From: Escherichia coli
GTDB taxonomy: Bacteria; Pseudomonadota; Gammaproteobacteria; Enterobacterales; Enterobacteriaceae
Length of the DNA stretch: 64,000 nucleotides
Strand: one strand, 5' to 3'
NCBI RefSeq assembly: GCF_003334355.1
Contig: NZ_QOWP01000002.1
The translations under genes were made by a program, and so were the position numbers. The notes below the pieces were generated by a model. It worked only from the letters and a program-made list of their open reading frames with translations, did not search any database and had not been told where the DNA came from. Shown one piece after another: positions 35,502 through 35,690 of this stretch. Position 1 is the stretch's first letter; each line of letters begins with the position of its first letter.

Positions 35502-35690
35502 GACGCATCCGGCATTTGGTTCCTGTCGCCGGATGCGGCTTGAACGCCTTATCCGGCCTACAAAACCATACAAATCAGTATGTTGAGCTTATTGTAGGCC
35601 GGATAAAACGCGCCAGCGTTGCATCCGGCATTTGGCTCCTGTTGCCGGATGCGGCGTGAACGCCTTATCCGGCCTACAAAACCACACAGA
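35502..35690. repeat. BIME: cluster of at least four REP elements between convergent preA and mglC
   Basis: Two near-identical direct units (gcatccggcatttgg.tcctgt.gccggatgcggc.tgaacgccttatccggcctacaaaacca) flanking an inverted REP copy (ttgtaggccggataaaacgcgccagcgttgcatccggca). Confidence 0.8.

Follow-up and report, generated by a model that had tools for sequence, protein, structure and literature searches.

REP156 between preA and mglC of Escherichia coli: anatomy, alleles and possible roles of a repeat array at two convergent 3' ends

What is the repeat array that lies between the convergent genes preA and mglC of Escherichia coli, and what might it do for the two operons that meet there? 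The locus was studied in a stretch of 64,000 nucleotides (contig NZ_QOWP01000002.1 of RefSeq assembly GCF_003334355.1), hereafter the window, with positions counted from its first letter. The 3' end of preA lies at 35494 (+ strand) and that of mglC at 35737 (- strand), and the 242-bp spacer between them contains an array made up of REP elements (repetitive extragenic palindromes). An earlier note, made from the sequence alone, had placed a bacterial interspersed mosaic element (BIME) at 35502-35690, with direct and inverted REP units between convergent genes. Both points hold: three complete units and a partial one alternate in the preA (+)/mglC (-) spacer, and the interval given in the note covers the array well. 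The array is almost certainly REP156, a member of the E. coli REP/BIME family. Taken as a whole, the locus is probably best explained by this identity, a chimeric BIME type, a mechanism in which hairpins and Rho act at the 3' ends, and the dynamics of the REP family.

Anatomy and identity of the array

The REP hairpins, three complete and one 5'-truncated, occupy 35497-35700 in alternating orientation and amount to 3.5 palindromic units. They are arranged as two copies of a 116-bp unit composed of a truncated Z tail, a short linker, a Y unit and a long linker. In a repeat search, this organisation appeared as a direct repeat of 88 nt (35497-35584 versus 35613-35700, 89% identical, spacing 116) and as nine inverted repeat pairs. 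The parts of the array are the following:

35497-35514, + strand: 5'-truncated REP, apical and tail half only, CCAGAGACGCATCCGGCA, beginning 3 nt past the preA stop codon
35515-35527, no strand: tail-to-tail linker 1 (short, S-type), 13 nt, TTTGGTTCCTGTC
35528-35561, - strand: REP Y1, y-type, complete, GCCGGATGCGGCTTGAACGCCTTATCCGGCCTAC, with GTAGG on the - strand
35562-35593, no strand: head-to-head long linker (L-like), 32 nt, AAAACCATACAAATCAGTATGTTGAGCTTATT
35594-35630, + strand: inverted REP Z, complete, GTAGGCCGGATAAAACGCGCCAGCGTTGCATCCGGCA, with GTAGG on the + strand, located by the REP pattern search
35631-35643, no strand: tail-to-tail linker 2, 13 nt, TTTGGCTCCTGTT
35644-35677, - strand: REP Y2, canonical y-type, complete, GCCGGATGCGGCGTGAACGCCTTATCCGGCCTAC, with zero mismatches to the head and tail probes
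35678-35700, no strand: first part of a second long-linker copy, AAAACCACACAGATCATGATGTT, ending the 116-bp repeat

Y1 and Y2 differ at a single stem base (GGCTTGAACGCC) and share an identical stretch of 27 bp. The Z unit is a hybrid, with a z2-like apex (ACGCGCCAGCGT) and a y-like foot (GCCGGAT). The truncated first REP is in register with 35613-35630 of this complete inverted REP in the 116-bp direct repeat, and it is fuller in other Escherichia alleles, for example TAAGACGCGCCAGCATCGCATCCGGCA in the allele L021. The tail-to-tail linker is conserved at 13-14 nt across all Escherichia alleles examined; in the Rfam alignment, linker 1 lines up with the linker inside the naRNA4/REP325 unit. Nearly all E. 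coli genomes that carry the long linker with its adjoining REP do so at a single site (median 1, highest 3 per genome). An open reading frame of 90 aa at 35243-35515 (-), which runs antisense through the end of preA into a REP, was given no weight as a coding candidate.

The units have the features by which REPs are recognised. A degenerate 36-nt REP pattern matched twice in the window, where 100 shuffles gave an expectation of 0.00, and a chance cluster of palindromes is thereby excluded. The earlier note had proposed a scan for the REP consensus and had named a lack of any match as the outcome that would tell against it; the units match the consensus, so that this outcome did not occur. They are 34-37 nt long, within the 30-40 nt of the imperfect palindromes called REPs, and they fold as hairpins. 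The GTAG tetranucleotide, which is a defining feature of REPs (PMC3333891), stands at the hairpin foot of all three complete units (GTAGG/CCTAC at 35557-35561, 35594-35598 and 35673-35677). The internal mismatch typical of the family is seen in every predicted hairpin as an internal loop between a foot of 7-8 bp and an apical stem of 3-5 bp; non-complementary stem bases are needed for binding by TnpA-REP. Extragenic position and high copy number are found as well, as all six REP loci of the window are intergenic and a 601-bp query of the locus matched a median of at least 38 places per E. coli genome. A BIME consists of REPs that alternate in orientation and are joined by linkers (PMC3333891), and here the order is (+) tail, (-), (+), (-), with recurrent linkers of 13 nt and 32 nt. 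Finally, the Rfam family RF02564 (naRNA4), which in essence models two REPs in the form Y-linker-Z2, matches 35597-35674 on the - strand with 88.3 bits (E = 2e-14 for the whole window), over its full length (model positions 1-77 of 77) and above its gathering score of 59.5 bits. The Z unit aligns to the Z2 hairpin of this model, its foot having G:C where the model has U:A.

The assignment to REP156 comes from comparison with strain MG1655, in which the 242-bp spacer is base-for-base the same and is flanked by the same convergent genes. The catalogued REP156 (MG1655 2236535-2236684) corresponds to window 35529-35678, i.e. from Y1 to Y2, and its entry reads 'Convergent, preA / mglC' (supplement of bioRxiv 10.64898/2026.03.23.713779); the truncated fourth unit and the half linker are omitted from the entry. 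The window strain is not MG1655 itself, the two being 98.2-99.5% identical over three blocks aligned by BLAST. Since the REP156 coordinates in the preprint table match the array, the element is already catalogued, and REPs and BIMEs have been known since the 1980s; nothing about it is new as a finding.

BIMEs have been divided into BIME-1, a single pair of y and z1 units with a long L linker that often bears a site for integration host factor (IHF); BIME-2, tandem y and z2 units with a short S linker and the flanking motifs s, l and r; and atypical BIMEs, in which the motifs y, z1, z2, L, S, s, l and r are put together in other ways and which occur in multiple copies (PMC3333891). REP156 does not have the form of a BIME-1, since it consists of 3.5 units instead of one pair and its partner unit aligns to the long Z2 hairpin. 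Its Y-short linker-Z halves match REP325/naRNA4 at 88 bits, as a BIME-2 would, but the foot of Z and the long L-like linker do not fit that class. Atypical BIMEs are matched by the mixture of L-like and S-like linkers in a tandem array of variable copy number. By exclusion, REP156 appears to fit an atypical (chimeric) BIME, in which halves of the BIME-2-like form Y-short linker-Z2-like are combined with BIME-1-like long linkers.

The mixed character becomes clear when REP156 is set beside its closest references. REP325, the model BIME-2 in the yjdM-yjdN spacer, shares with it the pair of Y and Z hairpins with a short linker; the Y units are nearly identical, the short linkers are homologous (ACAGGAGCCAAA in REP156 and ACAGTGCCAAC in REP325, - strand), and both elements are tandem arrays in a 3' spacer. 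They differ in several respects. The REP325 unit consists of Y, 11 nt, Z2 and 17 nt with a period of 100, whereas that of REP156 consists of Y, 13 nt, a Z-like hairpin and 32 nt with a period of 116. REP325 has 12 units versus 3.5, and it lies between tandem genes while REP156 lies between convergent ones. The 17-nt head-to-head spacer of REP325 is without an IHF-type site, whereas the 32-nt spacer of REP156 contains an IHF-type core. At the foot of Z, REP156 has the y-like GCCGGAT where REP325 has GCCTGAT, both sides of the stem changing together so that pairing is kept.

On the other side stand the BIME-1 (RIB or RIP) elements, which like REP156 have two head-to-head REPs and a long linker with an IHF-type site; no 'RIP' names occur in the REP table of the 2026 preprint (bioRxiv 10.64898/2026.03.23.713779). 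As BIME-1-like reference pairs, we used a Pseudocitrobacter locus (L070) and the yeiI-nupX spacer of MG1655. The long linker of REP156 resembles the head-to-head linkers of these two, and the pattern AAAT(T)CAG...TTR after CCTAC is common to all three. The partner unit, by contrast, is long and z2-like in REP156 and of the short form in both reference pairs, and the head-to-head pair of REP156 forms part of a tandem array that has short linkers as well, unlike the single pair of a BIME-1.

The junction in other strains and genera

The earlier note had also suggested that the copy number at this locus be compared between strains, and this comparison showed the preA-mglC locus to be polymorphic. 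In a sample of 5426 complete E. coli genomes, the alleles were distributed as follows:

Multi-unit array with long linker and inverted unit: 2819 genomes (~52%)
70-bp spacer with three REP tails only (GCATCCGGCA, linker, TGCCGGATGCAGCGCATCCGGCA), as in NT1F10: 2445-2455 genomes (~45%)
One-Y form, 116 bp shorter, as in strain 144: ~57 genomes (~1%), a figure obtained by subtraction (2876 - 2819) and not by direct count
Assigned to none of these three alleles: ~95 genomes, the remainder

The one-Y allele carries the variants of the first copy on its left and those of the second copy on its right. It would therefore derive from a crossover within the 27-bp stretch that is identical between Y1 and Y2, a junction such as expected from unequal recombination or slippage. 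The 70-bp allele looks like a Y-L-Z palindrome from which the interior has been removed. Phylogroup A contains both this remnant, in strain HS, and the array, in K-12. The GPEC60 allele carries one more inverted unit and one more long linker, and its spacer measures 258 bp. Copy number thus varies in two ways: whole repeat units are gained or lost, and the Y-L-Z palindrome loses its interior. Within the stems, a compensatory difference separates the alleles of K-12 (AACGC...GCGTT) and L021 (GACGC...GCGTC). The number of tandem BIMEs is known to differ between strains, and in vitro, BIMEs are both cleaved and recombined by TnpA-REP (PMC3333891); at this locus, the array probably arose, and continues to change, through the nuclease of a REP-associated transposase (RAYT, TnpA-REP), together with recombination or slippage between the 27-bp identical Y stretches.

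Outside E. coli, the junction was followed in species-representative genomes by scanning for a PreA motif with a degenerate pattern, which gave 74 loci. Five Citrobacter species have a preA-mglC spacer of 56-61 bp, and that of Kluyvera ascorbata is 76 bp long; the S. arizonae locus breaks off after 19 nt. In Citrobacter and K. ascorbata alike, the spacer contains an A-run, a GC-rich stem of 8-11 bp and a T-run (about -18 to -32 kcal/mol depending on the strand) and no REP, and it is a textbook example of a bidirectional intrinsic terminator. This terminator occupies the same place between the same convergent genes as the REP array and likewise offers a GC-rich hairpin to each of the two transcripts; it differs in being a single hairpin that is not repeated elsewhere and has no GTAG, while the Escherichia array is without a U-tract. 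The sample covered six species or clades of Escherichia (E. albertii, E. whittamii, the E. coli representative and three others); all of them have REP arrays of 112-280 bp in varied arrangements, and none of these six has a U-tract terminator. The simplest reading of this distribution is that the terminator is ancestral and that REPs replaced it in the Escherichia lineage.

Other relatives show a different arrangement after preA. In Kluyvera cryocrescens, K. georgiana and Pseudocitrobacter (L065, L070, L019, L075) an open reading frame follows which, judged by eye, is a putative small membrane-protein gene; where those genera have this putative frame, only a terminator follows preA in Citrobacter. 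The preA-mglC spacers measure 341 bp in L065, 706 bp in L070 and 614 bp in L019. In Pseudocitrobacter, the putative frame is followed by a canonical REP pair of short z, long linker and y.

A farther-reaching proposal can be built on these two comparisons, namely that in Escherichia the REP array took over both the place and the job of the ancestral bidirectional terminator of preTA and mglBAC, and that the near-even split within E. coli is a cis-regulatory polymorphism. Its two forms would be the multi-unit array with its IHF-type site, in about 52% of genomes, and the 70-bp remnant, in about 45%, where a REP-tail palindrome is all that is left; they would differ in 3'-end formation, antisense read-through or supercoiling. 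We regard this proposal as doubtful. If true, the polymorphism would shift the expression of the galactose transporter or of the pyrimidine dehydrogenase while promoters and coding sequence are untouched. The replacement of a terminator by REPs and the allele series are tidy illustrations and not surprises. The value of the locus is that of a clean worked example, with a two-way terminator in Citrobacter and Kluyvera, a REP array in each Escherichia sampled and several architectures within E. coli; it also offers a convenient natural allele series for testing REPs as context-dependent terminator or stabiliser elements of the 3' untranslated region (UTR).

Possible roles at the convergent 3' ends

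By analogy with other REPs, we lean towards a role of the array as a set of hairpins at the 3' ends of both transcripts, where they would keep exonucleases out and help Rho to terminate transcription. Both convergent transcripts, preTA (+) and mglBAC (-), would enter the array, and each REP is predicted to fold into a hairpin of roughly -20 kcal/mol in either of them. The hairpins would slow RNA polymerase, so that Rho could end transcription in or beyond the array; after Rho termination, exonucleases would trim the RNA back to the REP hairpins, where PNPase and RNase II would be halted and stable 3' ends thereby defined. On the + strand, Rho might load at the 3' end of preA; on the - strand, it might do so on the C-rich RNA antisense to preA. 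The array would in this way substitute for the A-run/hairpin/T-run terminator of the sister genera. Effects at the DNA level, namely bending by IHF at the long linker and binding of gyrase at the Y units, may come in addition.

Folding is consistent with this proposal. The RNA hairpins of Y1 (-19.7 kcal/mol on the + strand and -20.1 on the - strand), Z (-21.2 and -20.5 kcal/mol) and Y2 (-21.3 and -20.9 kcal/mol) are all more stable than expected by chance, with z-scores of -3.6 to -4.6 for the single units and 0-1 of 200 shuffles folding as well; for the whole spacer, z is -7.5 on both strands against shuffles. No U-run follows any hairpin in the E. coli spacer. A hidden intrinsic terminator was sought in the spacer and rejected, the one weak site inside a REP comparing with 0.7 expected in shuffles, and a scan for promoters found no promoter-like site there.

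Two segments next to the array bear on the loading of Rho:

35458-35526, + strand: in-vitro Rho-binding segment, with NusG present, in the preA 3' end/3' UTR (MG1655 2236464-2236532)
35400-35479, - strand: RNA antisense to the end of preA, in which C exceeds G by 12-14 per 60 nt

The first comes from an earlier in-vitro screen tabulated in bioRxiv 10.64898/2026.03.23.713779, where its row reads 'P_N10_2270', REP156, 'Proximal'; it ends 3 bp before REP156. The second has an excess of C over G of the kind that Rho prefers, and judging from this composition it may be where Rho loads when mglBAC transcripts read through past the array. Work on other loci reports that the steady-state 3' ends of mRNAs terminated by Rho lie at stable stem-loops, REPs among them, which halt PNPase and RNase II (PMC6061677), that REP325 is a partial Rho-dependent terminator and stabilises the upstream mRNA, and that REPs between convergent genes accompany higher expression of both genes (both bioRxiv 10.64898/2026.03.23.713779). 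The earlier note had listed gyrase and IHF binding, mRNA stabilisation and targeting by REP-associated transposases as properties of such elements, and these statements are correct for the family (PMC3333891, PMC6379681, PMC6061677); at REP156, what bears on them is the match to an IHF-type consensus and the Rho-binding segment 3 bp away.

Several observations weigh against a role as 3'-end hairpins. When the whole spacer is folded, the structure of minimum energy has neighbouring inverted units paired to one another instead of separate hairpins. The full array appears to be dispensable, as about 45% of complete E. coli genomes have the 70-bp spacer without a complete REP, and the first Y unit is decaying in the B2-type strain CD306. 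In addition, terminal REPs have no general effect on mRNA half-life and their context dependence is large (bioRxiv 10.64898/2026.03.23.713779). Since the evidence on transcript ends, half-lives, IHF and gyrase stems from elsewhere, the function at this locus is transferred from other REPs; a literature search with mglC and 'repetitive extragenic palindromic' found no paper.

A possible but less likely explanation is that the array acts mainly on DNA, with IHF bending the long linker and gyrase binding the Y units, so that it would buffer topology, or offer gyrase a strong site, where the positive supercoils of the two convergent operons meet, and the effects on RNA would be secondary. The site on which the first part of this explanation depends is the following:

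35573-35585, + strand: IHF-type core AATCAGTATGTTG, predicted by consensus, matching the relaxed consensus WATCARNNNNTTR

Of the 14 relaxed-consensus matches on both strands of the 64 kb, it is the sole one in 35400-35800. Among 13 head-to-head linkers and half-linkers from 10 Escherichia alleles, 11 retain the core while the flanking linker positions vary. The long linker of BIME-1 elements frequently bears an IHF site (PMC3333891). The strict consensus WATCAANNNNTTR, however, is not matched at the core. As to gyrase, its cleavage is over-represented in BIME-2 elements, mostly at y-type REPs, and persists when transcription is blocked (PMC6379681), and two y units lie between convergent genes at this locus; yet the supplements of the gyrase map make no mention of preA, mglC, yeiA or REP156. 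Nearly half of the strains do without the linker and complete REPs, which also speaks against an action on DNA as the main role. Such an action is compatible with the proposed 3'-end role and does not exclude it.

It is likewise conceivable, and to us rather unlikely, that the array is selfish or neutral, i.e. a by-product of RAYT (TnpA-REP) proliferation and of recombination between repeats that is tolerated in a 3' spacer. The near 52:45 dimorphism between the multi-unit array and the three-tail remnant, the existence of one-Y and extra-unit alleles and the decay of units in some lineages would all be in keeping with this, as would the variation of BIME number between strains and the in-vitro activity of TnpA-REP referred to above (PMC3333891). 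REP content varies, moreover, at three of the six REP loci of the window, when the window strain is set against MG1655 or E. coli strains are compared with one another. On the other hand, every Escherichia lineage sampled retains a REP hairpin or a REP-tail palindrome and none has regained a U-tract terminator; therefore, some hairpin seems to be needed at this 3' end. The compensatory stem difference between K-12 and L021 also argues against neutrality, and a selfish origin is compatible with a function acquired later.

That the Y-linker-Z pair at 35597-35674 (-) encodes a naRNA4-type RNA, which would bridge cruciform DNA with HU and compact the chromosome, is highly improbable: although the RF02564 match is full-length and exceeds the gathering score and any RNA with two such hairpins is reported to work with HU (PMC4550694), the Rfam model equals a Y-linker-Z2 BIME unit, so that the match reflects family resemblance and not function; the spacer is without a promoter-like site; neither a stable HU-cruciform-naRNA4 complex nor REP-REP contacts were found and deletion or over-expression of REP325 had no effect on nucleoid size (bioRxiv 10.64898/2026.03.23.713779); and the nucleoid role is disputed even for REP325.

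Other REP loci and further features of the window

The earlier note had listed further REP copies at 18563, 25386, 31728 and 54978. All four sites are real, with small coordinate offsets: the first position is 14 nt early, and the other three correspond to 25380-25461, 31730-31763 and 54981-55017. A fifth, degenerate copy between yeiI and nupX was absent from that list. The loci other than REP156 are:

18577-18610, - strand: one canonical REP of y-type in the spacer of bglX and osmF, which are tandem genes of the - strand, located by head and tail probes
25380-25461, no strand: REP154, two tail-to-tail REPs between the convergent genes yohD and yohF, located by pattern search and probes
31730-31763, - strand: one REP whose head has decayed (CTTGTCCGGCTTGC), closely downstream of cdd
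51790-51823, - strand: degenerate single REP between the convergent genes yeiI and nupX
54981-55017, - strand: single REP between the convergent genes yeiL and psuT, a hybrid of y foot and z apex like the inverted unit of REP156

With REP156 included, the six loci all lie at gene 3' ends; convergent genes flank four of them and tandem genes the other two, so that no locus has divergent genes on its two sides. In REP154, which is placed between yohD and yohF in the same table as REP156 (supplement of bioRxiv 10.64898/2026.03.23.713779), the first unit has a decayed head and the second is of z-type (GCCTGATGCGACAC...).

Two of these spacers differ between the window strain and MG1655. In the yeiI-nupX spacer (window 51783-51837), MG1655 has a complete BIME-1-like pair of two REPs (a REP, a 26-nt linker and a short z REP), and the spacer of the window strain is 51 bp shorter and has the single degenerate REP. 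In the bglX-osmF spacer, the window is 41 bp longer than MG1655 directly after the REP (18611-18651), and the extra segment is flanked by a 9-bp direct repeat, CAAAGGGCG. These 41 bp resemble the long-linker motif and the tail of a z-type REP (AAAATTCAGCAAGTTAAG...ATCAGGCA); they would be a remnant of a BIME-1 that MG1655 has lost or never gained.

Three features unrelated to REPs were also observed. Positions 1-184 of the window are not MG1655 sequence and contain a full-length match to the Rfam RNA-OUT family (IS10) at 70-139; from 185 on, the window continues inside yehI (MG1655 ~2201237), so that an IS10 end lies in yehI. None of the 5426 complete E. coli genomes covers at least 80% of window 1-400, and therefore this IS10 insertion appears to be specific to the window strain. 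Between yehK and yehL, 3357-3432 (+) gives a full-length match of 101 bits to the Rfam OrzO-P antitoxin RNA, which is overlapped by open reading frames of 35-42 aa. Upstream of pbpG, 23868-23948 (-) matches the Rfam Peptidase-S11 RNA motif with 72.8 bits, in the leader of this DD-endopeptidase gene.

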